Shown piece after piece: positions 7,243-44,192 of a stretch of DNA of 64,000 nucleotides. Below the pieces are notes generated by a model. The model had not been told where the DNA came from. It saw only the letters and a list, made by a program, of their open reading frames with translations, and searched no databases. The first letter of the stretch is position 1. Every line of letters begins with the position of its first letter. Location of the stretch: contig JAHISQ010000034.1 of NCBI GenBank assembly GCA_018818125.1, forward strand, positions 30,592-94,591, written 5' to 3'. A program made the translations under genes and the position numbers. The stretch is from Candidatus Rifleibacteriota bacterium (lineage in GTDB: Bacteria > Muiribacteriota > Ozemobacteria > Ozemobacterales > Ozemobacteraceae).

Positions 7243-7994
7243 AGAATGTCGCTCCATGAGACGACTGAATCGCCTTCTGACAGCTCTTGGGTGAGCTTCA
7301 TGTCGAGATCTGTGATCTTCTCCAATAGTATTTTTTGCCGGTTTAGAGGGAGACGCAGAACATCATCCCGGATCATTCGCAGTTGTTGGGCCTTCTGAGC
7401 GGCATCTAGGGGCAGGTTGCTGTTTTCGAGACGGTCGAGAGCCGAAAAGAACTGTCTCACGGTCGCATCCGACCGCAGTTTTCCGGCCCCTGCACCGGTT
7501 CCGGACTCCCGGAAGTTTCCGATGAAAAACAACAAAACCAGGATTGCCGCAACAAAAAGAACGGCCCCAACCCACCCTTTTGCAGGTGCTCTTTCCACCA
7601 CCGCGCCGGTTGTCATTGGGGAATTGAGACGAGAAAGCGCGGAGCAAGTTTCCCCTGGATCCTTGCTTGCAGCCGAACCATCAATCTTGACGAGCATTCG
7701 ATCCACAAAATCAAGGGTCGCTTGAACGGAAGCCATTCGCACAGTATTTCCGGAAGGAAACGTCTGCAACAACACCCCGTTTTCCACGATAAAAGTAAAG
7801 GCAAATCTTCGTGGATCGACGATCATCGCCGCGCTTTCACCGGCAGAACCATTTGGAGCTGCGCTGATCCGGAACAACGCGGCAAAGAATTGCTTCAACC
7901 GCAACCGGGATACTTCTCCAACCTGTATGACCTGACCGGAGAAAGAGGGTTGAAAATCAGAGCCGAAACCCCTCAATGAAACATCATACCGCAT
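7239..7994 (-). CDS. Bitopic membrane protein (251 aa), function unknown
   Basis: Single central TM helix (WVGAVLFVAAILVLLFFIGNF). Translationally coupled to the 977-aa gene. Shares the GC-rich composition of the cassette. Confidence 0.5.
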   Translation of the reverse strand: MRYDVSLRGFGSDFQPSFSGQVIQVGEVSRLRLKQFFAALFRISAAPNGSAGESAAMIVDPRRFAFTFIVENGVLLQTFPSGNTVRMASVQATLDFVDRMLVKIDGSAASKDPGETCSALSRLNSPMTTGAVVERAPAKGWVGAVLFVAAILVLLFFIGNFRESGTGAGAGKLRSDATVRQFFSALDRLENSNLPLDAAQKAQQLRMIRDDVLRLPLNRQKILLEKITDLDMKLTQELSEGDSVVSWSDIL

Positions 7995-8656: not shown

Positions 8657-10015
8657 TTATTTGTTTTTAAGTTCGCTGATCAGATTGCAAACGTTAGTCT
8701 GAGTAGCTTCATCGAGACCGCCTTCAACAAATACTCTGAAGTTCAGTTTGGCAATAACGTTGGCGCTAACTTCGCGGTTCTTTTCATTGGCAGTAGAAAC
8801 ATAATCTACCAGGCTTGAAACATCACCACGGCTGATATCAGCAACCAGAGTCTTAACAGCGGCTTTTTTGTAGTAATCTTTAACCATGGTTTCCCACATA
8901 CAATCTTTGGCAAAGGCCAGGTCTTTGTATTCTGCAGAAAAGCTGTAAGAAGAAGTCGGGAAGTAGATGGCCAGGCCAGTAGCATTCTTGGTATTGTAAC
9001 CACTCAGGCCATTGCAAACAACGGTCTTAGCATAAGCAGCTTCGAGTTTCTTGGCCGCAGTCTGGAAACCTTCGTCCTTGATACTTTCTTTGGCCAGAGC
9101 CACGAAGTGACCAAGATCAATGTTGGTTCTGTAATAGAATTTCTGAACACGGTTAAGAGCAGACTTGAATTCGACGGCATATTCGCCGGCCATAGATGCT
9201 TTTGCAAAGCCGTTAATAGCGTCATTCAGGTTATTGATCTCGCTGCATTTGAGAGCAGACTGGGTGCCTGATGAGTTACCAGCGCTACCACCGTTGTAAG
9301 AAATAGCATACTGCTTAACAATAACTGTTGCCAGCTGCTCAGGAGTGATGCCTTTTTTGAAGTTCTCGATAATTTCTTTGTAGGGATAGCCTTCACCAGG
9401 TTCAGTTTCCTGAGAAGCTATAAAATAGTCACAGCCATCTTTTACTGCATAAGCAACTTCCATCATCTGCATAAGGCAAGCATCGAAAGATAGAACATCA
9501 AGTTTTTTGCCAAGTGCAGTTTCGATTTCTTTCAAAGCAACAGTCAGCTGATTGGTAGTGATGTGGTTGTTTGATGAATCATCATAAGAAATACCTTTGA
9601 TGATTTCGTCATTAGCGTTTTTCCAACCGGAGCCATGGTTCCAGATAATTGAACAATAATGTTTGGCCGGATAGGCTTTGGCAGTTTCAGTAACAAATTT
9701 TACATATTCGCGATAGTCGCCCATGTCAAGCTCGCCCATCTCTTTAACAACCTGGATGCCATCTTTAGCAACATAGTTAAGAGTAGCCGGAGCATTTTCG
9801 CGGTCGATAAGGCACACAATGTTAATATTATCGTTTGATCCGCCACCAGCTACCATTTCTTGGAGATCGCCCACGCCGAAAGAATCAAGATTGTTATCGG
9901 CATTCAAAAAAACCATGAATGTCCATTCTTTTTGGGCAGCGGCGCCAGCTGGTGTACAAAAACAAAGTGCAAAGAAAGCAATGGCTAAAATACTAATGAC
10001 TCGTTTCATCTTCAA
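8657..10015 (-). CDS. Secreted clostripain-like cysteine peptidase (family C11)
   Basis: Signal peptide. Motifs WTFMVFLNADNNLD, catalytic His in IIWNHGSGW and catalytic Cys in LSFDACLMQMMEV match the C11 His-Cys dyad pattern. Confidence 0.8.
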   Translation of the reverse strand: MKMKRVISILAIAFFALCFCTPAGAAAQKEWTFMVFLNADNNLDSFGVGDLQEMVAGGGSNDNINIVCLIDRENAPATLNYVAKDGIQVVKEMGELDMGDYREYVKFVTETAKAYPAKHYCSIIWNHGSGWKNANDEIIKGISYDDSSNNHITTNQLTVALKEIETALGKKLDVLSFDACLMQMMEVAYAVKDGCDYFIASQETEPGEGYPYKEIIENFKKGITPEQLATVIVKQYAISYNGGSAGNSSGTQSALKCSEINNLNDAINGFAKASMAGEYAVEFKSALNRVQKFYYRTNIDLGHFVALAKESIKDEGFQTAAKKLEAAYAKTVVCNGLSGYNTKNATGLAIYFPTSSYSFSAEYKDLAFAKDCMWETMVKDYYKKAAVKTLVADISRGDVSSLVDYVSTANEKNREVSANVIAKLNFRVFVEGGLDEATQTNVCNLISELKNK

Positions 10016-10279: not shown

Positions 10280-11650
10280 TCAGCGGGCTATAGAGCCAGA
10301 AAGCTGCTTGAAAAGTCCGCTAAATTCTTCTGAGAGAGACTCAGGCAATCCCTTTTCTGTATACATTTCATAGTTAAGCTCACGAATAATAAAGCGGTAG
10401 AAATCTGCATTTTCTGAATTGCTCATGGCGGAAGCAACCAGATTGCGCATCTCGTCAAGACTCCCTGCCTTGATCTCGCTGACAACATTTGCCGCTATAT
10501 CACGCTTGAGAAGAGTTTGAATCATTTCATCCCAGAGTGTCGCCTTGGCAAAGCTGAGTGTCAAATATTTGGCTTCAATCCGGAAGGTTGATGGCAGATA
10601 GATGGCGATACCCTTAGCGTTTTTAGTTGAATTACCAGTGTTTTTGCAGGCGATAACAGCAGCTTTGCCAGCAACCAGAAGCTTGTCGCAAGCAGTTTTT
10701 ACTGATTCATTGCTGCTCATGCGGGCTTTAAGTAATTCGGCGAAATGCAGCATGCTGATGTTTTCTGGGAAGTCGAACTTATGAGTGTTAGCCAAAACTT
10801 CTTTAACTTCGGTTGAGTATTTGCCGCTCATAAGTGCTTTGGCCAGACCGTTTATGGCGTCAACCATTTTATCGAATTTGCTCATATCAACAGCTGACTG
10901 AGTAGATTCATCGTAACCCTGACTGCCACCAGTATATGATTTTGAAAAAGCGTTAACCCAGTTGATCGCAAAGGCTGAAGGAGTCATGCCTTTTTTAACG
11001 CCGACGAGAATATCGTCGTAAGGAGCACCTTTGCCAGGCTCAAGTTCTTCAGAGGCGACCATAAACCCGACGTTGTCTTTAACAGCGTGACCAACTTCGA
11101 CCATCTGCATCAGACACGCATCCATGTTAAGAACGTCAATTTTCTGGCCAAGAATCTCGACCATTTTGGCAGTAGCCAAAGACAACTGAGCGCTAGTTAT
11201 ATGATTGTTAGAAGAGTCGTCATAAGAGATGCCACGGAAAATGTTGTTTAATTTCTTGCCCTTCCAGCCGGAGCCATGGTTCCAGATGGTGAAACTGTAG
11301 TGTTTTGCTGGATAATTCTCTTTTACAAAGCTGGCGAACTTGACAAGTTCGTTGTAATCACCCATATCAACTTCGCCCAAGTCTTTAATCTTGGTAATAT
11401 TATTCTTTTCTATGAAATTAATCTGCGCCGGGCCGCGTTCGCGGTCAATCAAAGTAACAACGTTAAGGTTTGCGTTGGAGCCAACACGAGACATTTCTGT
11501 CTGATCTTCAACTCCAAATTCGTCAAGGTTGTTGTCGGCATTGAGAAAAACTGCTACGGTCCAGTCCTTGAGCTGCTGCGCGCTTGCAGGCGTAAGAACG
11601 ACGAACATAAACAGGGTGGTTACTGCGACGATACTTGCTACTCGCTTCAT
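10280..11650 (-). CDS. Secreted clostripain-like cysteine peptidase (family C11), paralog of 8657-10015
   Basis: Signal peptide. WTVAVFLNADNNLD, FTIWNHGSGW and LNMDACLMQMVEV motifs. The sequence is collinear with the neighbouring paralog across its full length. Confidence 0.8.
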   Translation of the reverse strand: MKRVASIVAVTTLFMFVVLTPASAQQLKDWTVAVFLNADNNLDEFGVEDQTEMSRVGSNANLNVVTLIDRERGPAQINFIEKNNITKIKDLGEVDMGDYNELVKFASFVKENYPAKHYSFTIWNHGSGWKGKKLNNIFRGISYDDSSNNHITSAQLSLATAKMVEILGQKIDVLNMDACLMQMVEVGHAVKDNVGFMVASEELEPGKGAPYDDILVGVKKGMTPSAFAINWVNAFSKSYTGGSQGYDESTQSAVDMSKFDKMVDAINGLAKALMSGKYSTEVKEVLANTHKFDFPENISMLHFAELLKARMSSNESVKTACDKLLVAGKAAVIACKNTGNSTKNAKGIAIYLPSTFRIEAKYLTLSFAKATLWDEMIQTLLKRDIAANVVSEIKAGSLDEMRNLVASAMSNSENADFYRFIIRELNYEMYTEKGLPESLSEEFSGLFKQLSGSIAR

Positions 11651-13827: not shown

Positions 13828-15498
13828 CTATTCTTCAGGATTTTCAGAATTCTTGGCTTCTTTGGTGTTTTCAGTGTCCTCGACGACCTCAGTGTCTTCG
13901 AGGACTTCAGTTTTTTCGAGGACTTCAGTATCCTTGATGACTTCAGAATCCTCAATGTCTTCGGTGTCCTCGGTGTCCTCGGTGACATAAGGAATATCTG
14001 GGACTTCTTGCAGGTAATCAAATTCTATTATTGGCCAGTTGACGAAATCAAGATGCTGATCAAGCGTGCTTTGCAGCAAAGCAAAAGCCTCAGCACTGCC
14101 TTCGTCAGCTTCAGAGGCTGCGGCAGATACTTCGCCCTCAGCAAGCCTGGCAGTCTGATTAAGCATGTCATTCAGCAGAACAAAACTCTGGCGCAATTCC
14201 TGTTGAGCAGAGAACTCCGTTGTTTCTGCCTCATCAAGGTCACGGTCCGGGTATTTGTCAGTAAATTCGGCAATGCGGGCAGCTCGGCGTGATCCTTTGC
14301 CGGCCATAATTTCGATTTCGCTCAGCCGGTTCTGTACAAGCTTTTCGAATTTACCGGCAAAAACACTGAATTTTTCCCGATAGTTACGCAGACTGAAGGC
14401 AAAGTCGTTACAGCTGCGAAAAATTCGACCAAGCTGTGAACCCTGCATGACGCCAGGCGCATGATCGCTGACAGCAAGAAAATAGTCGATATTCACGAGG
14501 CAAAACTGGTAATGGTGCTCGAATTGATTCAACAGCGCGACAAGCTGACTGTTCTGGTTCTCTAATAAAACAAGCATATCACGGTTAGTCGCACGCAAAA
14601 ACCCTGGAATGCGGCCCTGAACGTGGCGACGTGAGTTCTGCAACCCGGCCTGCTGGCAGAAATCTGCAATTTGACCTGAAAGTTTGCGCAACATCTGAGC
14701 TAGTTTATCCTGAATGTCGAGCAGATTGCGCAGTTCACTTAACCTGATTTCGCGCGCCAGCGGCTCGCGAATCAGCTCGTTGGTAAAAGTGTGCATAAGA
14801 GTTCTGGTTGTGTTTTCGCAGACGATATTACCGATCTCAAACAGGCGCGGAAACACAAGCATCGCGGCGTTTACAGTATAGACATTATGATTGGCGACTC
14901 GCGCTAAAAACTCGCAATGCCGGCGAAAGCTGCGATCATCACTGGTTCCAGCAATGATTGCCAGGGCGCGGCGACTGAATTCTCCAGATTTTACTGCCAG
15001 CTTATGACTCTGTTCGAAGTGTTCTTCGATATCTTTGAGCGAACCCTGAGTGTACGGCTCGCCGTCGAACGGACCAGGCGCTGCCTTTTCTGGTTCGGGT
15101 TCTATTTCTTCTGTTTGCGAAGCGATTTCTTCGTGCTGGCCGGTCTCATCGCCCAACCGTGCTGTTTCTGATCCCACAATTGAATCCTCTGAAATAACAC
15201 CATCTACAGCCGAGTCCTTTTCTACGACGGCAGCGACAGGCAAATCTGCATCTGGCGCTTTTTCTACTGTTAAGTCTGCAACCGGCTCTTCAACCAGACC
15301 GGTTCCCGCCAACAGGCCTTCCCTGACACTACCAGCGTCTTCAGGAGACTGCACAACCGCGGAAACAGTAGTTTTATCAGCACTACTTGATTCAGAAACA
15401 GCAGCTGGCACAGCAATGTTCTGGGCAAATACAAAACCAGGAAAAGAGAAAGCCGCTGTAAGGAACAGCGGCATTGCAATCAATAATGTTTTTTTCAT
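13828..15498 (-). CDS. Secreted acidic protein with a C-terminal tandem-repeat tail
   Basis: Signal peptide MKKTLLIAMPLFLTAAFSFPGFVFA. The N-terminal third is highly acidic. A central domain of about 250 aa has no recognised motif. The C-terminus is an (E/D)-T-E-[VI] repeat array. Confidence 0.5.
   Translation of the reverse strand: MKKTLLIAMPLFLTAAFSFPGFVFAQNIAVPAAVSESSSADKTTVSAVVQSPEDAGSVREGLLAGTGLVEEPVADLTVEKAPDADLPVAAVVEKDSAVDGVISEDSIVGSETARLGDETGQHEEIASQTEEIEPEPEKAAPGPFDGEPYTQGSLKDIEEHFEQSHKLAVKSGEFSRRALAIIAGTSDDRSFRRHCEFLARVANHNVYTVNAAMLVFPRLFEIGNIVCENTTRTLMHTFTNELIREPLAREIRLSELRNLLDIQDKLAQMLRKLSGQIADFCQQAGLQNSRRHVQGRIPGFLRATNRDMLVLLENQNSQLVALLNQFEHHYQFCLVNIDYFLAVSDHAPGVMQGSQLGRIFRSCNDFAFSLRNYREKFSVFAGKFEKLVQNRLSEIEIMAGKGSRRAARIAEFTDKYPDRDLDEAETTEFSAQQELRQSFVLLNDMLNQTARLAEGEVSAAASEADEGSAEAFALLQSTLDQHLDFVNWPIIEFDYLQEVPDIPYVTEDTEDTEDIEDSEVIKDTEVLEKTEVLEDTEVVEDTENTKEAKNSENPEE
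13850..13990. repeat. Coding tandem repeat (period about 9-18 bp) specifying the EDTE(V/I) tail of the 556-aa secreted protein
   Basis: GAGGACTTCAGT / GATGACTTCAGA / GTCCTCGGT units are repeated head-to-tail. Arrays like this are prone to length variation. Confidence 0.5.
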
Positions 15499-16356: not shown

Positions 16357-18573
16357 TTAATTCAGCAGCAAAGCAATGGACAGACCCATACTCAGAGCGG
16401 CAATTAAAGCTGTACAGGCCGGCGACGAGAAAAATCGCCAATAAAGAAAGCCGAGTAATGAAAATAGCGCTGCCGGCAGCATGGTCGGAGACGGGGAAAT
16501 TGCCGTTAAAACCGCGAGCGCGATGAATGCCTGCGTGCGGCGGCCAGTTAGCAAATCACTTTGAACCTGCCTGAAAGTCAAAAACGAGAAAAAAGCAGCG
16601 GCAAGAACCGGCAGCGCCGAGATCAAAACGACTGACATATCATAACTCAGGCCAATGTCGCCAATCATGTGTGCAAAATAAATCAGTTCTCGAGTTAGAA
16701 GCTCTTTTGTTGCAATATTGTGATAAAGATAAAGCCAGGTGCCCCCAGTGCTCAGCGCACTGAACACGACAATCGCCACAGCTCTCGGCAACCAACCAGC
16801 AGCAGCAGCAACAGCGTTGTTCGCCAGAGGAAGAGCGGCGCCTTCCTGCTTTTTGAAACCAACTGTCAGCATGGCCAAAGGTGTCATGACCAGCGCCGGC
16901 AAAACCCATGTCCATAAACCGGTGTCTTCGCCTGGAATTACTGCCAGAAAAAATTGTTTCATGACAACTTCGCCGCCCAGAAAAGCAAATACAAGCAACA
17001 TGAAGTTAATCCAACGCTGTTGGCTGTTGTCGTGCTGGCTTGTTTCGAGGCGATAAAACATCAGCGTCCGAGCTTTCATGTTGAGCAGAACGACAATCAC
17101 GGCAAAAAGCAGAGCATTGTAAAAGTTCAACAGATTAAGTGCTTTAATCGGCACCAGCAGAAGCATAACGCCCAAAGCAGCTGCCTTAGCCGATAGAGTT
17201 GAACTCTGCTGCAGCATTTTGCTATCGAAAACCGGAAATATTGCCGAAAGTTGCAGGGCCGCCCAGACGCAGGCTGCAGTAAATAGCATTGTCAGAACTG
17301 CCGCTTTCGCAATCTCCAGCGCAGCGAAGTTCAGATACCATGCCGCCACAACTGTCAGCGGCAGAAAAATTATCGTTGCAGTCGTTACCCAGAAAACAAA
17401 TTTGCGGCGCAGGATTTCGCCGGGATGAAGTGGCAGGCTCTCGAGCAGCGATATGGTGCGTCCTTCGCTGCCAATGGCATTGGTTGGCCCGAACATGCAA
17501 AAATAGACGATACCTGCAAAAATCAAATTAAGCAGCGCTGCGAGTGTTTTAAAATCTAGCAGCTTTCCGACAAAAAAAATATTGACTAATATGAGCGTTA
17601 TCGGCATCAGCAAGGCATTAACTTTAATATTATAGTCGCTTTGCATCAGCAGATAATCTTTTTGCGCAAGCCCTGAAAACCTACTGTGCTGCCGTGGCTG
17701 ATTTTGCCTGGTCTTTGTCTTTCTGATCGAAAGTGCACCTGCATTGAGTGCCCGATGCAGCAGGAAAGTAAAAAAGACCATTGCAGCGAACCACAAACCG
17801 CTGAACATCCAGAATTCCCGCACCGACCCGACATGTAAAAGAGTGGCACCTAACCAGCGCACCGGCTGCAATACTACAAACAGAGAGTTTTCCAGACTGG
17901 CGTAAGAACTCATCAGGAACTGGACGGCCATTAATGGCGACTGATCAACCAGTGCATAGGGAACGAAAATGGCAAATCCTGAAAAGTAGCCAAAAATCGA
18001 AAAAAAGTTGTTTATCGAGGTCATTGGCAGGTATCGTCGCAGGCTCAGCATGACCAGGTTGATGATGGTGCCGAGCAACAGACTGATCTGCAGAAAAAGA
18101 ATCAGAGAAATAAAAATTGCCCCGACACTAAATCCTTCACGACAGGTTGTCGCAATAAAACCCGGCAGAAGAACCAGGGCGCCAATATAGTCACTGGCAC
18201 AGCGCTCAAAAATCTTGACGCAGAGCAAACTTGCTGGAGGCACCGGCAGTGTTGTCAGATAATCAAAATCTGAGCTCATTTGCCCGGCGTTTATAGTATG
18301 CCCGCTGAGCAAATCACTTATCAGCACCACAAAGATCGCATAAAAGGCTATAAAGCCAATCAACCATTCCGGCAACCAGACAGGAAGCCCCAGCAGGCCA
18401 ATTTGCAGAACCATTTCTGAAACTGCTGAGCTGATAGCAAATATCATCATCAGAGCAGCAAAAAAGATCAACACAGCTTTTTTACCGGTCAGACGAGCCC
18501 TCAAACTATTGTAGAAAAGTCTGAGTTTAACCTTGCAAAGAGGAACAGTTGTTGCCAGAAACGATGCACTCAT
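16357..18573 (-). CDS. Large polytopic membrane protein (738 aa, more than 14 predicted helices), function unknown
   Basis: Continuous hydrophobic helices throughout and no soluble domain of more than 60 aa. It sits in a minus-strand run with secreted proteins. Confidence 0.6.
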   Translation of the reverse strand: MSASFLATTVPLCKVKLRLFYNSLRARLTGKKAVLIFFAALMMIFAISSAVSEMVLQIGLLGLPVWLPEWLIGFIAFYAIFVVLISDLLSGHTINAGQMSSDFDYLTTLPVPPASLLCVKIFERCASDYIGALVLLPGFIATTCREGFSVGAIFISLILFLQISLLLGTIINLVMLSLRRYLPMTSINNFFSIFGYFSGFAIFVPYALVDQSPLMAVQFLMSSYASLENSLFVVLQPVRWLGATLLHVGSVREFWMFSGLWFAAMVFFTFLLHRALNAGALSIRKTKTRQNQPRQHSRFSGLAQKDYLLMQSDYNIKVNALLMPITLILVNIFFVGKLLDFKTLAALLNLIFAGIVYFCMFGPTNAIGSEGRTISLLESLPLHPGEILRRKFVFWVTTATIIFLPLTVVAAWYLNFAALEIAKAAVLTMLFTAACVWAALQLSAIFPVFDSKMLQQSSTLSAKAAALGVMLLLVPIKALNLLNFYNALLFAVIVVLLNMKARTLMFYRLETSQHDNSQQRWINFMLLVFAFLGGEVVMKQFFLAVIPGEDTGLWTWVLPALVMTPLAMLTVGFKKQEGAALPLANNAVAAAAGWLPRAVAIVVFSALSTGGTWLYLYHNIATKELLTRELIYFAHMIGDIGLSYDMSVVLISALPVLAAAFFSFLTFRQVQSDLLTGRRTQAFIALAVLTAISPSPTMLPAALFSLLGFLYWRFFSSPACTALIAALSMGLSIALLLN

Positions 18574-18620: not shown

Positions 18621-19460
18621 TTATCGCCAGGGTTGGCGGTATTTCTGCTCCAGGTAGTATGCTTCTTTTTCCATGGGAATGTCAAAATCTTTGCTTCTGC
18701 CAGTAGAATCTGCCCATGCACACTGCAGACCCCAGTTCATACTCCAGGCTGTATCGTCTACCCAGTTATCGCCGATTCTTTCATCGAAACCCTTTAAAAA
18801 GTTGCCGATACGCAGTGGATACATAGAGTCACGCCGGTATTGAAAAGTATGAACCAGCTCATGACCAGCATGCATCCCGTCTTTGTTGGTTGTAAAATTA
18901 TTCGCATTGCTGTAAGCCAAAGCACCAGAGCCATTGAGAGTGCCGTCGGTGGTTACACTGCGTTTGAAGGCCAGAGTGCCATAGTGAAAACTTCGGTTGA
19001 AATCGAGTTTTGAACCTTCAAGCAAATGAATAATCGGTGCCACTACAGCGTTTAAAGCAGGCTTTATCCTGATATCACCATCCTTGGCTATTAGCCAAAC
19101 TGGTCCAATATCCATTCTGAAAACAAATTTATCGCCCGCTGATTCGGCCAGGGAAGCCCCAAGATTAACCATGCACTTTGCCTGCCAGGCTTTAAGAGCA
19201 GATTCTTCCTGCAATGTGGGTGCCATTTTAAAGCCCTGATACATGATATACCCGCCAAAAGCAGCCTGCAGAACTGCTTTCTCAATATTCTGTCCATTAT
19301 GATACGCCCTTACAGCGGCAATTGCTGCGGGAAGGGCAACGTTGATCATCACAACATCCCTGTCTCCAAACGCTTTTACCCTGGCATTTGAGCAGGTAAA
19401 AATCATAAGTGCTGCTACGAGCAGCAACGCCGACCGTTGCAGAAAAATTGGGAACTGCAC
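18621..19460 (-). CDS. Putative secreted zinc metallopeptidase (HExxH)
   Basis: N-terminal signal/anchor region. HAGHELVHTFQYRRD contains HELVH, which is an HExxH motif. No further family assignment is possible by eye. Confidence 0.45.
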   Translation of the reverse strand: MQFPIFLQRSALLLVAALMIFTCSNARVKAFGDRDVVMINVALPAAIAAVRAYHNGQNIEKAVLQAAFGGYIMYQGFKMAPTLQEESALKAWQAKCMVNLGASLAESAGDKFVFRMDIGPVWLIAKDGDIRIKPALNAVVAPIIHLLEGSKLDFNRSFHYGTLAFKRSVTTDGTLNGSGALAYSNANNFTTNKDGMHAGHELVHTFQYRRDSMYPLRIGNFLKGFDERIGDNWVDDTAWSMNWGLQCAWADSTGRSKDFDIPMEKEAYYLEQKYRQPWR

Positions 19461-19547
19461 AGAATGACCTCGAGCTGTTTTTTATCTCTGTCGGAATGTT
19501 TACCCGATTAATGAATGATAAATTGTGACATGTACAGTCGCTGTTGG

Positions 19548-20675
19548 TCAGGGCAGCTGGTAAAAAACCTGAACTTTGCAGCGCCAGATGAGTGACTGCG
19601 AGCCGGCAAGATAGGCCAGTTTCATGCTTAAAATTCTAAATTTATGGGCATAGGGAGACATTTTCCGAAGGAAATCACTTAGCGGCTTAAAGTCGCGCGC
19701 AGCTACCTCATAGGTTGTTTCAAGAATCTTGTTTTCGGCATCTCGCTCAGCTGTATCACTTATTGCAACATCAACTTCTTCAGCAATCAGCTTAACGAAC
19801 TCACGCAATTCAGAGATTGGCTTGACGTCTTTATTTTCAGTCCCCATGCCGGCAATTTCGAATTTAAGATCAAGCAGCTTTTCTTCGCCCTGCGGCGGCG
19901 GCGCCGAGGTAATCTCAACCCGGCCACCACTTGCTTTTTCAAGCACAGCAGCAATAGCTGGTTTTTGAACCGTTGATGAACAGGTGATTTTAACTGGAAT
20001 CCAAACTGAGTTAGCTTCGCTGGTTGGCTCTTCAATTTCAATACCAATGATGTTATAGCTGGACTGGTCTTTGAGAAGTCTTTCAATTACATCGCATGCT
20101 TTTTCGCTGGCCGAAATTGGCAGCGGCCGGAAAATACCGGCAACACCCACAGTTTTTCCCGGCTCTGGCGCCACGGTTTTGAGCTTGTTGATAAAGCTTG
20201 TAATCTTAGGATTTTCAGGGTCTTTTTCGCGGGCAATGTTGACGTTGTGCCAGGCATTTTCATGTTCTTTCATGCGTGCCGCAATAACAGCGCGCATAAA
20301 GCGACCACCTGAGTGATCTGGCTGACGTTCAAAAACCAACTCAACTTCTTCAATGGCACGCTGATAATTTTTTTTCAAAAAGTGACGATTCGCAAGCTTC
20401 ATATGCACTGTTATGTAGCGTTGATCAGAATCTGTAAGCACCTGTTCTGAGCTGTCGATAGTGCGCCCGGTCGGCTGCGACGGCAGTGTGAGATTGACGT
20501 TTTTGACGTTTGTGCCTTTGGGTAAATTTTTATCCTGGTATTCACGAGCTTTGTCTTGCAGTTTGTCCCAGTCGATGTCGGCCGCAAAAAGGGTGACAGC
20601 GAGAGAAAATGCCCACACTGCAAAACAAAGTTTTACAGTCAATCCCGATTTGTTATGGCAACACTGTCGGTTCAT
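19548..20675 (-). CDS. Secreted or anchored hypothetical protein (375 aa)
   Basis: N-terminal hydrophobic segment LCFAVWAFSLAVTLFAA. No recognised motif. Lies immediately downstream of a STAS-domain gene. Confidence 0.45.
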   Translation of the reverse strand: MNRQCCHNKSGLTVKLCFAVWAFSLAVTLFAADIDWDKLQDKAREYQDKNLPKGTNVKNVNLTLPSQPTGRTIDSSEQVLTDSDQRYITVHMKLANRHFLKKNYQRAIEEVELVFERQPDHSGGRFMRAVIAARMKEHENAWHNVNIAREKDPENPKITSFINKLKTVAPEPGKTVGVAGIFRPLPISASEKACDVIERLLKDQSSYNIIGIEIEEPTSEANSVWIPVKITCSSTVQKPAIAAVLEKASGGRVEITSAPPPQGEEKLLDLKFEIAGMGTENKDVKPISELREFVKLIAEEVDVAISDTAERDAENKILETTYEVAARDFKPLSDFLRKMSPYAHKFRILSMKLAYLAGSQSLIWRCKVQVFYQLP

Positions 20676-30383: not shown

Positions 30384-31018
30384 TCTAGAATCCTCCCCAT
30401 AATTTTTTGTTCCTGCCGAGTTCGCGAACAACATGCTGTAAACGACAATAAGAACCCGGTCATTTTAACTAAGCCGGTTTTGAATGTCAACCTTCTCAAA
30501 TTCACTCCAGAATTCTCCATTTGAGGACCCATAAGGAGCTTATACGATATTTAGTTCAAGCTATTGTTTATACCAATTTAAAAAGAATTCACGTAATGAC
30601 AGCCGCAGAAGAAAGTCAGAGGCAAGGAGATTTCGCACAGAGAAGAATAAAGACGCAGAAAATGTGAGATCTCTCCCTTTGGTCGAGATGACATTTTTCA
30701 TTGTCATTCCGAGAAGCGTAGCGACGAGGAATCTGTGTTTGTTAGTGAGACATCTCCCTGCGATCAATATATAATGACAAAATCCCTTCGATTTTGGGCA
30801 TGATGGCTTTATGCAGTTGCGCTGCAGGCGGGACAGGAGCGCAACCTGCCAAGATGACGTCCTTCGTGGCTTTGCGGCTTAGTGCTAGTATGTTTCTTTC
30901 TCATGAAGATTGGCATAAGTCCTCGTTTATTTTTTGGGATGCTAATTTCTGTTGCAAAATTGTACCGTATTGATTATTCTTTTGAATTAATAAACATCTT
31001 GAACAGGTAGAGAAGCAT

Positions 31019-33187
31019 ATGACGGTAGAGGTAATTCAGCTTGAGCGTGGGGGGACCCTTATAAAGACGCCCTCCGGCTCACTGCAGGTCGGTGCCCCCC
31101 CTGAAACAATCAAGGACACCATGAAAATTCTTGGTAATGTGCCTGACACGTTTGTCATTCCAAACCGCATGTTCTCTGCCGAACGTGGCGTATCTCTTTC
31201 TGACATCGAATTTCCAGCCTATTACAACTTTTTTATCAACCGCCGCTCGATCAGGGTAATCGGCATGAATCACCAGATCGACACTATTCTGCGAGTTCTG
31301 CGCGAAGCCGTTCTTGGGCCAGATAACATTCAGCTGGTGCGCGAATATCCCTATGGCATCAATCGCGATCTGATTCCAAATCTGCGCGCCGAGATGGAAT
31401 ACCTTCGCCCGTTCAGCCTGTCAGGAAAACGCAAAGCCGAGCTAAGCGACATGGCGATAGGTGTGCCATGGGGCCCGGACAACCGTGTGCCTTTTGGCGA
31501 CATGGCGCTGGAGCGCAACAAAGACAGCCTGCGTGTAGTTGATGGTACCAAGGTGCTTGCCGAAGTTTCTCTCGATATCAGTTTTGGCGGCATTCCGTAT
31601 AACGACAAAGCTGGCGGACCTTTTGAACCACCACTTTTTGGTATAACAGTAATTGGCTCAGGCTCAGGGTTTGACCCCAGAGAAATGACCAGCGGTTTTA
31701 TAATCTGGATCAACCGGCGCGGCATTCTCGTTGATCCGCCAGTAGACTCTACCTACTGGCTCAAGTCGATGGACATCAATCCCCGACTGATCGATGACTG
31801 CATCCTCACTCACTGTCACGCTGACCACGATTCTGGCATACTGCAAAAGCTGCTCGAAGAAAAGAAGATTAATCTTTACACAACTGAAACCATCATGGAA
31901 AGCTTTGTGAGAAAATATCAGACACTGACGGGTCTGAATTACAAAGGTTTTATGAGTCTGTTTCATTTTCATCCCGTTACTCTGCAGGTTCCAATTCGAA
32001 TCAATGGCGGCGAATTCAGATTTTTCTACACTCTGCACTCGATACCAACCATCGGCTTCGAAATCTATTATCAGGGCAAGAGCTTTGTCTATTCTTCAGA
32101 TTCCCTCTACTGCCCGGACACATTTAAAAAACTGTTTGAACGCGGCGATGTTAACCGCTATCGCATGATCGAGCTGACCAACTTTCCGTGGCATCATTCA
32201 GTAATTTTTCACGAAGCAGGTATCCCGCCGCTGCACACACCGATGGCGACGCTTAATGAGCTCCCGGAACAGGTTAAAAAAAGAATCTATCTGATTCACG
32301 TTGCAGAAAAGTCAATTCCAGAAGGTTCCGGACTACGCAAGGCTCCAAACGGCCGCGAAGAATCAATTCTCATCGACGTTACTCCGCCTGAAAGTAACGA
32401 GGCGCTCGAATACCTGAATGTGCTCAATCATATTGATCTGTTTTCCGGGCTACCGATCGAAAAAGCCCGCGAGTTTCTTACCCTCGTCAAGGTCGAAAAC
32501 TTTAAAACTGGCGATTATGTAATCAAAAAAAACACGATCGGCGACCGTTTCTTTATGATCGTCAGCGGACGGGCACGGGTTGAGCGCGAGAATGCTATTA
32601 TCAAGTGCTACACCAACAACGATTATATCGGCGAAACTTCAATGATTCTCAATATGCCTCGCAATGCGGATGTAATCGCCGAAACCGACATGAAGATCCT
32701 GGTCATGGATAAGTATGATTTTCTGTATTTTATCCGCGGCTCCGAAATAGCCCGTCAGATGAAAATTATTGCTCAGAACCGCGAACATGATACCTGGAGC
32801 CTGTTTAACGATGCGCCGTTGTTCAAAACGCTGTCGCCCGCTCAACGCACTCAAGTGCAAGGTTTGATGGCGCGAGTTCGCTATAAAAAGGGCGACGTGA
32901 TAGCAGCCCAGGGAACCACCCGTGAAACGTTCTATCTTATTGATAGCGGCGTATTATCAATAGAGCGTATGCGCAAGCAGATGCTCAAGGCCGGGCGCGG
33001 TAGTTTTCTGGCCAAGATCTATGCTAATCCTCGGCGCGGAGTGCATCGTTTCTCGATAGTAGCCGAAGAGGATTCAATTGTTTACTCAATCGACGCCATG
33101 GAATTCTATCGGTTCCTCGAAAAAAATCCTGGAGTTTTCTTGTATTTGAGGGAAGCACGTATTCGTGATACTATTCAGAATGCCTGA
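31019..33187 (+). CDS. Multidomain protein: N-terminal domain of unknown function (about 200 aa), class II cyclic-nucleotide phosphodiesterase / metallo-beta-lactamase-fold domain (HxHxDH), and two C-terminal CAP-family cNMP-binding domains
   Basis: ILTHCHADHDSG is an H-x-H-x-D-H-x-x-G match. cNMP-binding motif IGETSMILNMPRNADVIAETD (GE..L....PR.A.V.A pattern). A second, weaker copy lies at YLIDSGVLSIERM...NPRRGVHRFSIVAEE. Confidence 0.65.
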   Translation: MTVEVIQLERGGTLIKTPSGSLQVGAPPETIKDTMKILGNVPDTFVIPNRMFSAERGVSLSDIEFPAYYNFFINRRSIRVIGMNHQIDTILRVLREAVLGPDNIQLVREYPYGINRDLIPNLRAEMEYLRPFSLSGKRKAELSDMAIGVPWGPDNRVPFGDMALERNKDSLRVVDGTKVLAEVSLDISFGGIPYNDKAGGPFEPPLFGITVIGSGSGFDPREMTSGFIIWINRRGILVDPPVDSTYWLKSMDINPRLIDDCILTHCHADHDSGILQKLLEEKKINLYTTETIMESFVRKYQTLTGLNYKGFMSLFHFHPVTLQVPIRINGGEFRFFYTLHSIPTIGFEIYYQGKSFVYSSDSLYCPDTFKKLFERGDVNRYRMIELTNFPWHHSVIFHEAGIPPLHTPMATLNELPEQVKKRIYLIHVAEKSIPEGSGLRKAPNGREESILIDVTPPESNEALEYLNVLNHIDLFSGLPIEKAREFLTLVKVENFKTGDYVIKKNTIGDRFFMIVSGRARVERENAIIKCYTNNDYIGETSMILNMPRNADVIAETDMKILVMDKYDFLYFIRGSEIARQMKIIAQNREHDTWSLFNDAPLFKTLSPAQRTQVQGLMARVRYKKGDVIAAQGTTRETFYLIDSGVLSIERMRKQMLKAGRGSFLAKIYANPRRGVHRFSIVAEEDSIVYSIDAMEFYRFLEKNPGVFLYLREARIRDTIQNA

Positions 33188-33235
33188 TTTGCGCTTCAAC
33201 GCAACTGGGCGGAATAATCTGATAAGGAACATCTG

Positions 33236-34180
33236 ATGATCGACAAATTTCAGGCCAGCCTGCTCGGCTACGCAATAGGCGACGCTTTAGCCGCACCAAT
33301 AGAAGATGTTTTCCGCTCTCCAGAAGAAGGCGAGGAGCCTATAACTTTTTATATCAAGGCGTTTCCTTCGCACCCGGTCAGTCATCTTCGCCCTGGTCAG
33401 TATTCAGACGAAACCCAGATCATGTTGCTGTTTGCCAAAAGCCTGGTTGAAAAGGGCAATTTCGCTCTCGAAGACCTTATTACCAAACTGGTCGACTGGT
33501 TTCACCTGCAGAAAAAGCGCTCAGAATGGCGCTTCCCTGGAAATACGCTGATCAAATCCTGCCGAAAATTGGCTGCTGGCACGCCATGGAACCAGTCCGG
33601 ACATCTTTCTGCCGGAGTTAACGGAGTTTGCCGCACGGTTCCTTACGCGCTGGCCTTTTTCCGATCACAGGCACTGCTCAAGAACGCCATCGATAAATCA
33701 TGCCAACTGACCCACACAGACCAGAAAGTTGTTGGAACTTCGCTGGCGCTGGCTTCAGTTATCTCGCTCGGACTCGAAGGCGCTGAATTTTCGCCGGACT
33801 ACATTATGAATCGGGCAATTGAAAAGTCACAGCCCTTTGCCGCTGAAATGGTAAAGAAAATGAAAGCGGTAAAAGAATCTCTAAAACTTGAGCCGCGGAT
33901 CGCCATCGAAAACATTGGCAACAGCGGTTATTGTCTCGACTCTTTCGCGGCCTCGCTATACTGGTTTTTAAAGTCAGAAGGTCGTTTTGACGAAATGATC
34001 ATTGGCGCTGCCAATGCTGGTGGTGATGCCGATGCGATTGCTGCCATGGCCGGTGCAATGTTTGGTGCCTGGTTCGGACTGGGCGCTATCCCTGAGAAGT
34101 GGTTTGCGCCGCTCGAAGATTTTCAGGTTATCAGACAACTGGGCTGTGATATTTATCGCATGGCGGTACCACAGAACTGA
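33236..34180 (+). CDS. ADP-ribosylglycohydrolase family protein (DraG/ARH-like)
   Basis: N-terminal LLGYAIGDALAAPIE and C-terminal GAANAGGDADAIAAMAGAMFGAWFG are the two signature metal-binding motifs of the family. Confidence 0.75.
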   Translation: MIDKFQASLLGYAIGDALAAPIEDVFRSPEEGEEPITFYIKAFPSHPVSHLRPGQYSDETQIMLLFAKSLVEKGNFALEDLITKLVDWFHLQKKRSEWRFPGNTLIKSCRKLAAGTPWNQSGHLSAGVNGVCRTVPYALAFFRSQALLKNAIDKSCQLTHTDQKVVGTSLALASVISLGLEGAEFSPDYIMNRAIEKSQPFAAEMVKKMKAVKESLKLEPRIAIENIGNSGYCLDSFAASLYWFLKSEGRFDEMIIGAANAGGDADAIAAMAGAMFGAWFGLGAIPEKWFAPLEDFQVIRQLGCDIYRMAVPQN

Positions 34181-34208: not shown

Positions 34209-35135
34209 ATGAGTGAAACAACCACACTAACCCACCAGGACAGTGACGGTCGGGTAAAAATGGTCGATGTCGGCCAGAAACAGTCAACTGCACGCATGGC
34301 ACTCGCTTTTGCTTCAATGTTTGCCGGCGAAAAGGTGCTTGAGCTTTTGCAGGCAGGCGGTCTGGCCAAGGGCGATGCCTGGGCGGCTTCACGTGTAGCC
34401 GCGATTATGGCAGCCAAAAAAACTTCTGAGCTTATTCCACTGACACACCCAATCAGACTTGATTCTGTGCGTGTCGATCTGTTTGCCATAGGCAAGGATC
34501 GCATCGGCTGCTTTGCAACCGCCAGCGCCTTCGACCGCACTGGTGTCGAAATGGAAGCAATGGTCGCTGCGTCAACCGCCATGCTCAATATGTATGACAT
34601 GGTTAAAGGTGCCAACAAAGGTGCCTGCATCGAGCAGACACGTCTTGTATATAAAAGTGGAGGAAAAAGCGGCGACTGGCTAAGTCCTTCTGCGCAGATT
34701 GGTCAGATCGAAAAACTGGCAACCAGTAAAGGAAAAGGCACGCCAAAAGATCCATGTGACGAAGCAATGCTCAAAGTTCGCTTTGGCATAGAAAATGATG
34801 CGCATGGCGGTGACTGGCATCGGCAAGTTTCCCTGCTCGGTGTCGAAAGTATCGAAAAAATGCGGAGCAAAGGACTTGAGGTTGATTTTGGCTCATTTGC
34901 CGAGAACATTGCAACTTCTGGCATCTGCCTTTATGAACTGCCCGTTGGCACGCTTATGTGGTGCGAGGCTGGGCCGGTTATGCAGGTAACGCAGATTGGC
35001 AAAGAATGCCATACCAAATGCGCGGTTTATTATCGTGCGGGTGACTGTGTCATGCCGCGTGAAGGGATTTTTACCATTGTTCTGGCCGGTGGCCAAATCA
35101 AATCTGGCGAGAGGTTTATCACTCTGCAGATGTAA
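34209..35135 (+). CDS. moaC: Cyclic pyranopterin monophosphate synthase MoaC fused to a C-terminal MOSC-like domain
   Basis: Residues 1-160 are collinear with MoaC (KMVDVGQK, LIPLTHP, TGVEMEAM, KSGGKSGDW). Residues 170-308 carry MOSC-like motifs (DAHGG, HRQVSLL, AENIATSGI, conserved Cys near IGKEC). Confidence 0.85.
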   Translation: MSETTTLTHQDSDGRVKMVDVGQKQSTARMALAFASMFAGEKVLELLQAGGLAKGDAWAASRVAAIMAAKKTSELIPLTHPIRLDSVRVDLFAIGKDRIGCFATASAFDRTGVEMEAMVAASTAMLNMYDMVKGANKGACIEQTRLVYKSGGKSGDWLSPSAQIGQIEKLATSKGKGTPKDPCDEAMLKVRFGIENDAHGGDWHRQVSLLGVESIEKMRSKGLEVDFGSFAENIATSGICLYELPVGTLMWCEAGPVMQVTQIGKECHTKCAVYYRAGDCVMPREGIFTIVLAGGQIKSGERFITLQM

Positions 35136-35245: not shown

Positions 35246-35719
35246 ATGTCTGAGACACCAAAAAAATGGATACTGGCAATAGACCCCGGCTCTGACAAGA
35301 TAGGCTATGCTGTGGTTAACTACGATTTGAGTCACGGAGAAATGGGAGTTGTCTACCTTTCCGAGGTTCATAAAATGTTCAAGCGCATGTGCAATGTGCC
35401 ACCAGAGTCTGCGCCTCAAGCGGTCATACTGGGAAATGGCACGGCAGCGGCAGCAATCTGTCGTCTCTATAATTCGCTCGAAATTGATCTGCCGGTGCGT
35501 TTTGCCGAAGAAAAAAATACGACCTATAAGGCGCGGGCCCGCTATTTCAACGACAACCCACCAACTGGTTTCTGGCGACTGGTTCCGATCGGGCTGCAGA
35601 TGCCACCTCGCCCAGTCGATGATTACGCGGCTCTTTTGATCGGCGAAAAGTATCTGGTTGAGCAAAAGCTTGTCGAGCTTGCAGCAAAAACCGACGACAA
35701 AAGTGAAAAACCCGGGTGA
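35246..35719 (+). CDS. RuvC/YqgF-family nuclease (RNase H fold, RuvX-like putative pre-16S rRNA nuclease or Holliday-junction-resolvase-like)
   Basis: ILAIDPGSDKIGYAV (first catalytic Asp), AEEKNTTYKAR (compare YqgF DERLSTVEAR) and VDDYAALLIGEKYL (compare DSASAVIILESYF). Length of 157 aa fits. Confidence 0.55.
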   Translation: MSETPKKWILAIDPGSDKIGYAVVNYDLSHGEMGVVYLSEVHKMFKRMCNVPPESAPQAVILGNGTAAAAICRLYNSLEIDLPVRFAEEKNTTYKARARYFNDNPPTGFWRLVPIGLQMPPRPVDDYAALLIGEKYLVEQKLVELAAKTDDKSEKPG

Positions 35720-42735: not shown

Positions 42736-43149
42736 GTCTGGAATGCTCCCTGTTGTTAAAAGTGCATGTATGTGGCTATTATCAGACCGTATCAGAATCT
42801 CATCTGAGTATCACAATCTGTCATTCTAAGCCATTTTAGCCTTGATGCCAAGAGTGAATGTTCGTTTCACTAAAATTTATGAAGCCTCCCGAGACTATTT
42901 TACCCACATAAAACAGACAGCGAGGCAATAATTCGGCATGGTAACACCGTTTTCGTCCACATCTTAGAACGAAGCTTTTAAATTTTCTTTGAAGCTACGC
43001 AAATTACTCACAATTTCCACCCCGTTGCTTTGAGACTATCAAATTTGTTTGTTGTCATATAAATGGTTCTGTGTTATTCTGCGGGGTACGTCCCTGCTTC
43101 TGCCCGAAAGTGGCAGAGGCTGTAATTTATCCGAAGGGAGGTTTTCTAG

Positions 43150-43436
43150 TGAAACCTTACGAAACTTTGTTCTTCACCGAACCCGGCATTGAAGACACCG
43201 CCCTTGACACCCTCATCGGCAAAGTCGAAACTGCAATCACCAAAAATGGTGGACAGATCGAAAAGATCGACAAATGGGGCAAAAGACCCCTGGCTTACCC
43301 AGTTGAAAAGCACACCGAGGGCAATTATGTTCTGGTTAATTTTCAGTCTACTGGCGAAGCACTCAAGGAACTTGAAAGAACTTATCTGATCAACCAGACC
43401 ATTCTTCGCTTCATGACTACCGTTCGCGGTCAGTGA
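43150..43436 (+). CDS. rpsF: 30S ribosomal protein S6
   Basis: GTG start with a GGGAGG ribosome-binding site. MKPYETLFFTEP...KWGKRPLAYP is collinear with S6. The ORF is open from 43071. Confidence 0.9.
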
Positions 43437-43442
43437 TTTAGT

Positions 43443-43871
43443 ATGGCTGGCAATCTCAACAAGGTCTTTCTCATGGGTAATCTGACCCGCGATCCAGAAC
43501 TCAGACATACGGCGCAGGGAACCTCTGTCGCCAACTTCAGCATTGCCGTTAACCGCTCATACAAGGGCAGCGATGGCGATTTCAAGAAGGAAGTAAGCTA
43601 TTTCAATATAGTTGTCTGGGGCAAGACCGGCGAAAATTGCGCCAAATACCTTGCAAAAGGCCGTGCAGTTCTCGTTGAAGGCCGCATGGCCAATCGTAGT
43701 TATGAGACCCAGGATGGTCAGAAGCGCACTATCACCGAAATAGTTGCCGACAATGTGCAATTCTTAGGCGGTCGTGGAGACAGCCAGGAAGAAGCCGGCG
43801 AGGCAAGCGGCGGTGGTGATTTCAGCGGTTCTTACGCTGAAAACAATGACGACGACGCAGTTCCGTTCTAG
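43443..43871 (+). CDS. ssb: Single-stranded DNA-binding protein
   Basis: OB-fold motifs LNKVFLMGNLTRDPELR and VVWGK. Gly-rich linker and acidic C-terminal tip DDDAVPF. Confidence 0.9.
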   Translation: MAGNLNKVFLMGNLTRDPELRHTAQGTSVANFSIAVNRSYKGSDGDFKKEVSYFNIVVWGKTGENCAKYLAKGRAVLVEGRMANRSYETQDGQKRTITEIVADNVQFLGGRGDSQEEAGEASGGGDFSGSYAENNDDDAVPF

Positions 43872-43922
43872 ATCCCAAAGGCGATCTGAACTACTTTTTT
43901 AAAAATTATTCGGAGGAATAAA

Positions 43923-44150
43923 ATGGCTGAATTTAAAAGACACAGACACAGAAAAGTCTGTCATTTCTGCAAAGATAAAGTTACTTACATTGATTACAAA
44001 GATGTATCCCGCCTGAGAAGATATATCAATGACCGAGGCAAAATCACCAGTCGCAGATCAACCGGCACCTGCACCGCGCATCAGAAGCACCTTACCACTG
44101 CTATCAAGCGCGCGCGCAACATAGCGTTGCTGCCGTTCTCCAACGTCTGA
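43923..44150 (+). CDS. rpsR: 30S ribosomal protein S18
   Basis: [15 protein letters not shown]...RYINDRGKI...[24 protein letters not shown] is collinear with S18. Confidence 0.9.
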
Positions 44151-44192
44151 TCCGGCATTTTCCGATCCTGTTAAGCAACAAAAACCAGCACA

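Follow-up and report, generated by a model that had tools for sequence, protein, structure and literature searches.

A window of 64 kb, the whole of a 64,000-nucleotide stretch of contig JAHISQ010000034.1 from a Candidatus Rifleibacteriota bacterium, was analysed around two co-directional genes on its forward strand. Open reading frame (ORF) calling places the first, encoding 722 amino acids (aa), at 31019-33187 and the second, encoding a 314-aa ADP-ribosylglycohydrolase (ARH) family protein, at 33236-34180. With good confidence we assign the 722-aa protein, as a bacterial full-length member, to the GbpA/GbpB family (PdeD/PdeE, DdPDE5/6, "class IIb") of cytosolic 3′,5′-cyclic nucleotide monophosphate (cNMP) phosphodiesterases (PDEs) that are themselves switched on by cNMPs. 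The gene adds a bacterial member to a family that was known and named before; it does not constitute a new kind of system, and the outcome is mainly a correct annotation. Worth keeping beyond it are an N-terminal module predicted to be a degenerate metallo-β-lactamase (MBL) domain, family-wide if true, and a Riflebacteria-specific operon of the PDE and ARH genes. The parts of the PDE gene, including its two cyclic-nucleotide-binding (CNB) domains, are as follows.

31019..33187, + strand: gene for the 722-aa protein assigned as a GbpA/GbpB-type cNMP-regulated MBL phosphodiesterase (ORF, Pfam domains, homologues)
31019..31630, + strand: N-module (aa 1-204), predicted degenerate (pseudo-)MBL domain without metal ligands
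31631..32386, + strand: catalytic MBL domain (aa 205-456)
31811..31828, + strand: HxHxDH metal-binding motif H265-C-H267-A-D269-H270 (invariant in 32/32 sequences)
32390..32788, + strand: CNB-A (aa ~458-590), canonical CNB domain and predicted allosteric sensor (best Pfam cNMP_binding stretch, 493-573)
32630..32668, + strand: phosphate-binding cassette of CNB-A, G538-E539-T-S-M-I-L-N-M-P-R548-N549-A550 (32-sequence alignment)
32789..33172, + strand: CNB-B (aa ~591-718), CNB fold with a degenerate cassette (second Pfam cNMP_binding stretch)

A word-indexed homologue search with the 722-aa protein returned 1367 proteins, the best at E = 0, and 31019-33187 is therefore not a chance ORF. Nearly all of the best 120 of these homologues are about 720 aa long and cover 97-100% of the query. 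They form two groups, one of Riflebacteria/Ozemobacteraceae with 60-93% identity and one, with about 40%, that comprises Leptospira and other Spirochaetota along with cyanobacteria-related and further lineages. The closest loci are those of Candidatus Rifleibacterium amylolyticum CH46 (PDE 93% identical) and Riflebacteria GWC2_50_8 (92%), with a regional DNA identity of only about 74-78%, which points to a related yet separate Riflebacterium as the origin of the window. One homologue, 84% identical, is labelled "Erysipelotrichia bacterium" by NCBI (P0005), while the other close relatives are all from Riflebacteria; it is probably a mis-binned contig of a metagenome-assembled genome. A locus scan with one genome per species yielded 375 PDE loci, the best 80 of which are distributed over Riflebacteria, Leptospirales, Spirochaetales, Sericytochromatia, Wallbacteria, Desulfobacterota, Planctomycetota, Vulcanimicrobiota and Polyangiaceae. 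Many bacterial homologues carry the NCBI name "cAMP/cGMP-dependent 3',5'-cyclic-AMP/GMP phosphodiesterase", which we take to be the UniProt name of Dictyostelium PdeE/GbpB. As none of the NCBIfam hidden Markov models reaches its cut-off on the 722-aa protein, this name presumably stems from another rule.

The link to eukaryotes was tested with a profile built from the long eukaryotic members, followed by a repeat search. A protein of the dictyostelid Acytostelium subglobosum (P0366) is 34% identical to the 722-aa protein over residues 6-721 (E 3e-155), and a Thecamonas protein named "cGMP-dependent 3',5'-cGMP phosphodiesterase A" (P0370) is 33% identical over residues 5-710 (E 1e-147). Both alignments include the N-terminal signatures described below. 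It is this end-to-end alignment with dictyostelid and other eukaryotic members on which the assignment as a full-length bacterial GbpA/GbpB protein is based. The Dictyostelium enzymes GbpA and GbpB are MBL-type cNMP PDEs stimulated by cNMPs via two downstream CNB domains (PMC11988041), and GbpA (PDE5/PdeD) is the main cGMP-stimulated, cGMP-specific PDE of Dictyostelium (PMC8684759). The expectation of the sequence-only reading, an earlier annotation made from the letters of this DNA, that the protein is a cNMP-gated or feedback-regulated PDE gains support from the full-length collinearity with GbpA(PdeD)-type enzymes and from a catalytic domain closest to Apyc1 and YhfI, and is a prediction from sequence.

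Two observations concern the wider family. In Rhodelphis marinus (EukProt), the core of N-module, MBL and CNB domains is fused to a C-terminal class I PDE domain (P0175 and P0357; PF00233, E 8.6e-47 in P0175), which brings two unrelated PDE catalytic domains into one chain. Furthermore, the 722-724-aa bacterial-type proteins P0280, P0281, P0286, P0287 and P0289 are 46-47% identical to the 865-aa P0195, compared with 32-39% for the others in the alignment. P0195 is a Logan sequence that was grouped with the eukaryotic members on length alone; if it is eukaryotic, the similarity hints at a transfer between bacteria and eukaryotes within the PDE family.

Catalytic core, sensor domains and N-terminal module

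Pfam matched the 722-aa protein with Lactamase_B_2 (E 2.3e-9), Lactamase_B (E 2.7e-7) and, in two stretches, cNMP_binding (E 7.5e-28). Together with the ORF, these matches bear out the earlier description of an HxHxDH MBL core combined with two cNMP-binding domains. Residue conservation was counted in a 32-sequence homologue alignment. The metal-binding motif lies in the context T-H265-C-H267-A-D269-H270-D-S-G, and D239, H265, H267, D269, H270, H340, D361, H398, E399, H406 and H427 are each invariant in 32/32 sequences. The MBL domain would form a binuclear metal site from H265, H267, D269, H270, H340, D361 and H398/H406/H427 and, judged by homology, would hydrolyse cAMP and/or cGMP to the 5′-NMP. 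The only relatives of residues 205-456 found by sequence in the Protein Data Bank (PDB) are the Apyc1 family (7t28, E 1.2e-5; 7u2s; 7u2r), BA1088, an AMP/GMP-bound MBL protein from Brucella, and YhfI. An alignment with RNase Z, beta-CASP or another non-PDE MBL subfamily had been named as the finding that would speak against a PDE; the nearest solved relatives are instead the cNMP PDEs Apyc1 and YhfI.

CNB-A resembles the CNB domains of the cyclic-nucleotide-dependent kinases PKG and PKA, with Plasmodium PKG as the top PDB match (E 5.7e-24). Within its cassette, G538 and E539 are present in 32/32 sequences, A550 in 30/32 and R548 in 29/32. The residue that follows the cassette arginine is Thr or Ser in cGMP-selective and Ala in cAMP-selective kinases. 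At this position, 549, all Riflebacteria carry Asn and other lineages Thr, Ser or Ala. CNB-B is homologous to CNB-A (hhalign probability 98.7%). Its cassette reads A665-K666 where Gly-Glu is expected; only G661 is invariant, and there is no family-wide Glu or Arg in the 32 sequences. Hence the possibility, raised earlier, that the C-terminal domains lack the phosphate-binding cassette applies to one of the two: CNB-A has a canonical cassette and that of CNB-B is degenerate. From these sequence features we infer that CNB-A is the allosteric site and CNB-B a structural or non-canonical domain. Binding of a cyclic nucleotide to CNB-A would raise catalytic activity, the direction of regulation being modelled on the homologues. 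Such an activation would amount to feed-forward by the substrate, which, as in Dictyostelium, would limit and sharpen cNMP transients. CNB-B, having lost the canonical Gly-Glu and Arg, probably serves as a structural or relay domain and not as a second high-affinity site.

The N-module is strongly conserved, with the signatures R10-G-G, Q23xG25xxP28-E-T-I-K-D33, E64-F-P66, E96 and G100. No match to it was obtained by Pfam (E <= 0.1), by phmmer against the PDB or by a profile search against the PDB. In this sense the earlier statement that the N-terminal approximately 200 aa contain no recognised motif holds at the sequence level; at the level of predicted structure the region has a recognisable fold, that of a degenerate MBL domain. 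An AlphaFold model of the 722-aa protein has a pLDDT of 89.5 and a pTM of 0.88, and the predicted structure of the N-module is most similar to Apyc1/YhfI. On yeast Trz1 the full-length model can be superposed over 371 residues and on ELAC2 over 279, compared with about 205-221 residues for single-domain MBL proteins. Superpositions of this extent on long-form RNase Z imply that both MBL-like domains of the model are superposed at once.

After clustering at 50% identity, 779 representatives contain the N-module according to an exhaustive profile search, and for 210 of these the match has E <= 1e-30. Three kinds occur among the listed matches: proteins of about 720 aa carry the module N-terminally and proteins of 800-2200 aa internally, and a third, short kind of about 80-500 aa probably includes many fragments. 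Nine of the long proteins were scanned with Pfam, and eight contain MBL plus cNMP_binding and one cNMP_binding only. The named long members come from the eukaryotes Rhodelphis, Paulinella and Batrachochytrium. Two proteins from European Nucleotide Archive (ENA) metagenomes, P0162 (1453 aa) and P0166 (2179 aa), have two separate matches to the N-module profile each, which points to a tandemly repeated complete PDE unit or to further fusions. On P0162, Pfam gave a single cNMP_binding match.

Apyc1, YhfI, yeast PDE1 and RNase Z are homodimeric MBL "class II" enzymes, and YhfI-type host enzymes prefer cAMP/cGMP (Hobbs et al., PMC9117128). Long-form RNase Z goes back to an ancient tandem duplication of the short form, which is a homodimer; the N-terminal copy lost the catalytic motif and the C-terminal copy remained active (PMC5646807). 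Because of this precedent we propose a similar arrangement for the PDE family. The N-module, according to structure prediction, would pack on the catalytic domain as an intramolecular pseudo-dimer and replace the second subunit of homodimeric Apyc1, YhfI and short RNase Z. It is fairly likely, judging from the models, that the whole GbpA family consists of such single-chain pseudo-dimers of a dead and a live MBL domain and is the cNMP-PDE counterpart of long-form RNase Z. In the literature searched we found no description of a dead-plus-live MBL arrangement in GbpA-type PDEs.

The ARH gene and its neighbourhood

The ARH gene is preceded by the PDE gene and followed by two further genes in the same direction, with successive gaps of 48, 28 and 110 bp.

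33236..34180, + strand: ARH family gene, co-directional and 48 bp 3′ of the PDE gene (PF03747)
34209..35135, + strand: MoaC-MOSC fusion gene, 28 bp past the ARH gene (PF01967, E 2.6e-42, and PF03473)
35246..35719, + strand: small RuvX/RuvC-like (RNase H-fold) gene, last co-directional member of the block (weak Pfam RuvX match)
30747..30775, + strand: sigma-70-like promoter candidate (consensus scan, GAGACA-17-TATAAT, 10/12 matches; weak)

The gap of 48 bp between the PDE and ARH genes holds an AAGGAA ribosome-binding site, and no terminator-like site was found on the + strand in the PDE-ARH or ARH-MoaC gaps. The sequence makes it very probable that the ARH gene is co-transcribed with the PDE gene. 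Its product belongs to the ARH family, as had been read from the sequence before: PF03747 is matched at E 7.5e-62 and 210 bits (cut-off 26.2) over profile positions 2-286 of 287. The best PDB matches are MJ1187 (1e-21), an ARH protein from Thermus thermophilus, Tri1 and DraG. The ARH protein is probably catalytically competent, as its acidic metal-binding motifs D16, E23, S57-D58-E59 and D264/D266 are invariant among orthologues. The DraG equivalog model scores 96.8 bits (cut-off 337) and Tri1 89.2 (cut-off 490); the protein is a generic family member. A reversible ADP-ribosylation system of the DraT/DraG or Tre1/Tri1 type was considered and dropped, as no transferase lies in the window and both scores are under the cut-offs. 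The orthogroup of this ARH is found only in Riflebacteria, where about 80 clusters share at least 51% identity before the values drop to 30% or less.

How general the pairing is was counted in 20 Riflebacteria loci and 60 loci from at least seven other phyla, an ARH gene being sought within 8 kb of the PDE gene. In 19 of the 20 Riflebacteria loci a same-strand ARH gene lies directly 3′ of the PDE gene, at gaps of 13-119 bp. Across these 19 paired loci the identity falls to 65% for the PDE and 55% for the ARH, and MoaC and the upstream genes come and go. The exception (L017) has an ABC transporter in place of the ARH gene. None of the 60 loci from other phyla has an ARH gene within 8 kb of the orthologous PDE gene. 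Clustering of flanking ORFs recovered, for these other phyla, lineage-specific housekeeping neighbours only, for instance thioredoxin and acyl-CoA dehydrogenase in Leptospirales, and a search for a cross-phylum partner gene of the PDE ended with this lineage-specific synteny. With 19/20 loci in Riflebacteria and 0/60 elsewhere, the pairing of PDE and ARH is a phylum-specific operon arrangement and not a general signalling unit. PDE and ARH are the best-conserved proteins of the block, with 93% amino-acid identity at approximately 75-78% DNA identity.

Two further genes complete the block. In the MoaC-MOSC gene, the MoaC part passes the NCBIfam cut-offs of PRK09364 (172 bits, cut-off 162) and TIGR00581 (159.7, cut-off 141.5), and the MoaC/MOSC fusion model PRK14499 scores 314 bits, under its cut-off of 457. 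As the gene occupies this position in only about 12 of the 20 Riflebacteria loci, it appears to be a variable insertion into a conserved block of PDE, ARH and RuvX-like genes. It probably belongs to the same transcription unit as PDE and ARH but is functionally unrelated. The 157-aa RuvX-like protein matches Pfam RuvX at a sub-threshold E of 2.2e-4, and its gene is kept downstream of ARH in about 15 of the 20 Riflebacteria loci. A 188-aa ORF that overlaps 35246-35719 in antisense orientation is probably spurious.

Upstream, the PDE gene is preceded by a divergent intergenic region of 584 bp (30435-31018). The promoter scan found 12 sites where 6.9 are expected by chance, and the candidate at 30747..30775 is correspondingly weak evidence of a promoter. 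The same region contains two imperfect direct repeats of about 26 nt (GTGAGA..TCTCCC) at 30664 and 30745 that share 73% identity, as well as short palindromes; the best promoter-like site on the + strand lies partly within the second of the repeats. The repeats are weak and probably due to chance.

The remainder of the window has the gene content of an ordinary chromosome, including DnaB, ribosomal protein L9, SMC, LpxK, DeaD, a CHASE4 hybrid histidine kinase, glycosyltransferases and others. A Pfam scan of about 45 ORFs, comprising all non-overlapped ORFs of at least 150 aa, revealed no nucleotidyl-cyclase (Guanylate_cyc) or ADP-ribosyltransferase domain, in agreement with the sequence-only reading, and no Rfam family or tRNA was detected anywhere in the window. 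Two tandem genes at 8657-10015 and 10280-11650 on the - strand encode clostripain-family proteins (Peptidase_C11; E 2.8e-55 and 9.7e-51). Large ORFs of 982, 556, 738, 279 and 375 aa were left without a Pfam match (E <= 1e-3); they lie in 4309-7257, 13828-15498, 16357-18573 and 18621-20675, all on the - strand. Between the CHASE4 hybrid histidine kinase gene and a DUF2232 gene, a stretch of 1.46 kb (42736-44192) contains no ORF of at least 150 aa (the longest has 142) and has no Rfam match.

Alternative readings of the enzyme and of the gene pair

Several results weigh against the reading of the protein as a GbpA/GbpB-type, cNMP-switched PDE built as a pseudo-dimer. PDEase_II (PF02112) does not match the 722-aa protein at E <= 0.1. 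The earlier term "class II PDE" therefore stands in the broad sense of an MBL-fold enzyme and falls in the strict sense exemplified by yeast PDE1, Dictyostelium PdsA and Vibrio CpdP. The class II signature, presumably H-x-H-L-D-H-[LIVM]..., is likewise not fitted by H-C-H-A-D-H-D-S-G. Pfam Apyc1 (PF23023) scores 18 bits, far below its cut-off of 50, so that the protein, with its several domains, is no member of the single-domain, homodimeric Apyc1 family. The eukaryotic comparison was made with a dictyostelid homologue and a PdeD-named protein standing in for GbpA/GbpB of D. discoideum, and our literature search returned no published assay of any bacterial family member. Since position 549 of CNB-A is Asn instead of Thr, Ser or Ala, it does not assign the ligand to cAMP or cGMP, and CNB-B, with R672, R673 and R677 nearby, may bind a ligand non-canonically. 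As regards the N-module, hhalign gave no signal between it and the catalytic domain (0.4% probability); a duplication is suggested by predicted structure and not by sequence comparison, and the pseudo-MBL assignment as such comes from AlphaFold models.

The MBL domain could be a cNMP-regulated hydrolase of some other phosphodiester, such as an RNase Z-like nuclease, a PhnP-like 2′,3′-cyclic phosphodiesterase or a cyclic-dinucleotide hydrolase. A weak NCBIfam likeness to RNase Z (E 1.5e-5) and the automatic names "phosphoribosyl 1,2-cyclic phosphodiesterase" and "ribonuclease BN" given to homologues by JGI point in this direction. We regard it as improbable: all RNase Z and PhnP models stay far under their cut-offs, those for RNase Z (TIGR02651 / PRK00055) at 24 bits where 252-293 are called for, the full-length Dictyostelium homologues are proven cAMP/cGMP PDEs (PMC11988041, PMC8684759), and a fused CNB sensor suits feed-forward control by the substrate. 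Even less credible, to the point of being nearly discounted, is a role as host regulator of Pycsar-type antiphage signalling, in which a CNB-gated Apyc1-like enzyme would degrade cCMP/cUMP. Apyc1 is the closest structure, PADLOC reported matches to PycTIR and Pycsar effector models (E 1e-12 to 2e-6), and host Apyc1-like regulators have been raised as a possibility (Hobbs et al., PMC9117128). However, the PADLOC matches cover the generic CNB domain only and no neighbour fits any defence model; on these grounds membership in a defence island or Pycsar system was rejected. Moreover, the gene lies among chromosomal housekeeping genes without a pyrimidine cyclase nearby, and it belongs to the vertically conserved core genes, its synteny being stable inside lineages, Leptospira among them. 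The assignment to the GbpA/GbpB family is thus the reading we retain.

For the gene pair, the sequence-only reading had hinted at a small signalling unit, and this proposal emerges only weakly supported. As one functional unit, PDE and ARH could act such that reversible ADP-ribosylation controls the PDE or a cNMP component, or such that the two enzymes jointly end a cNMP signal and a second signal derived from ADP-ribose. The same strand, the short gap without a terminator and the operon-like organisation agree with such a unit, as do the adjacency kept in 19/20 Riflebacteria loci while the upstream genes and MoaC vary, the conservation of both proteins above the rest of the block, the restriction of the ARH orthogroup to the phylum that has the pairing, and the intact catalytic motifs of the ARH. 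Against it stand the 0/60 loci from other phyla, the ABC transporter in L017, the unrelated MoaC-MOSC and RuvX-like genes in the block and the lack of an ADP-ribosyltransferase or cyclase in the 64 kb; furthermore, conservation within a single phylum is not separable from inherited synteny. Overall, a functional unit is unlikely. Its more specific form, a co-transcribed and co-conserved Riflebacteria pair that couples cNMP turnover to the erasure of ADP-ribosyl marks or of a signal derived from ADP-ribose, is doubtful as well; here reversible ADP-ribosylation might, for instance, act as a switch on the PDE or on some other protein of the cNMP pathway. That the pairing is steadier than the surrounding synteny is mildly suggestive but inseparable from inheritance, and the family works without an ARH. 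Compared with this functional pairing, the pseudo-dimer proposal is rated as the likelier and the less surprising one.

Significance and relation to known systems

The turnover of cAMP and especially of cGMP in bacteria is poorly mapped, and the GbpA-type family is a widespread and strongly conserved candidate for this role. Members occur in Riflebacteria, in many sampled Leptospira (including L. interrogans and L. borgpetersenii), other spirochaetes, Sericytochromatia, Desulfobacterota and Planctomycetota. The compact bacterial proteins would lend themselves well to studies of the gating of an MBL active site by CNB domains. If true, the dead-plus-live tandem of MBL domains would account for the N-terminal third that lacks annotation throughout the family, the Dictyostelium enzymes included, and fill a gap in the domain databases.

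The ARH of the window shares full-length PF03747 similarity and the acidic metal-binding motifs with the ADP-ribosylhydrolases DraG, ARH3 and Tri1. Unlike the DraG and Tri1 systems, it has no DraT, Tre1 or other transferase nearby, and its orthogroup is confined to Riflebacteria.

Among the enzymes with an MBL fold, Apyc1 and Bacillus subtilis YhfI share with the 722-aa protein the HxHxDH di-metal chemistry on 3′,5′-cNMPs (PMC9117128), which for the latter is predicted. They are homodimers of approximately 250 aa without sensor domains, whereas the chain encoded in the window is predicted to combine a dead MBL, a live MBL and two CNB domains; in contrast to Apyc1, its gene has no phage or defence context. 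Yeast PDE1, a strict class II enzyme, is no nearer to the protein than PhnP or RNase Z. Long-form RNase Z (tRNase ZL: Trz1, ELAC2) offers the parallel in architecture: it has an inactive N-terminal and an active C-terminal MBL domain that mimic the short-form homodimer (PMC5646807), the arrangement predicted for the protein of the window. The likeness is one of architecture and not of family; tRNase ZL processes tRNA 3′ ends and the window protein is predicted to hydrolyse cNMPs.

The closest known systems are GbpA and GbpB of Dictyostelium, in which two CNB domains likewise follow the MBL catalytic domain (PMC11988041). In contrast to the eukaryotic GbpA-type proteins, the window protein is compact at 722 aa, without their N-terminal extensions and low-complexity inserts, and it carries Asn instead of Ser/Thr at the specificity position of CNB-A. 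Its gene further differs from those of Dictyostelium GbpA and GbpB by its place in an operon-like block with an ARH gene.

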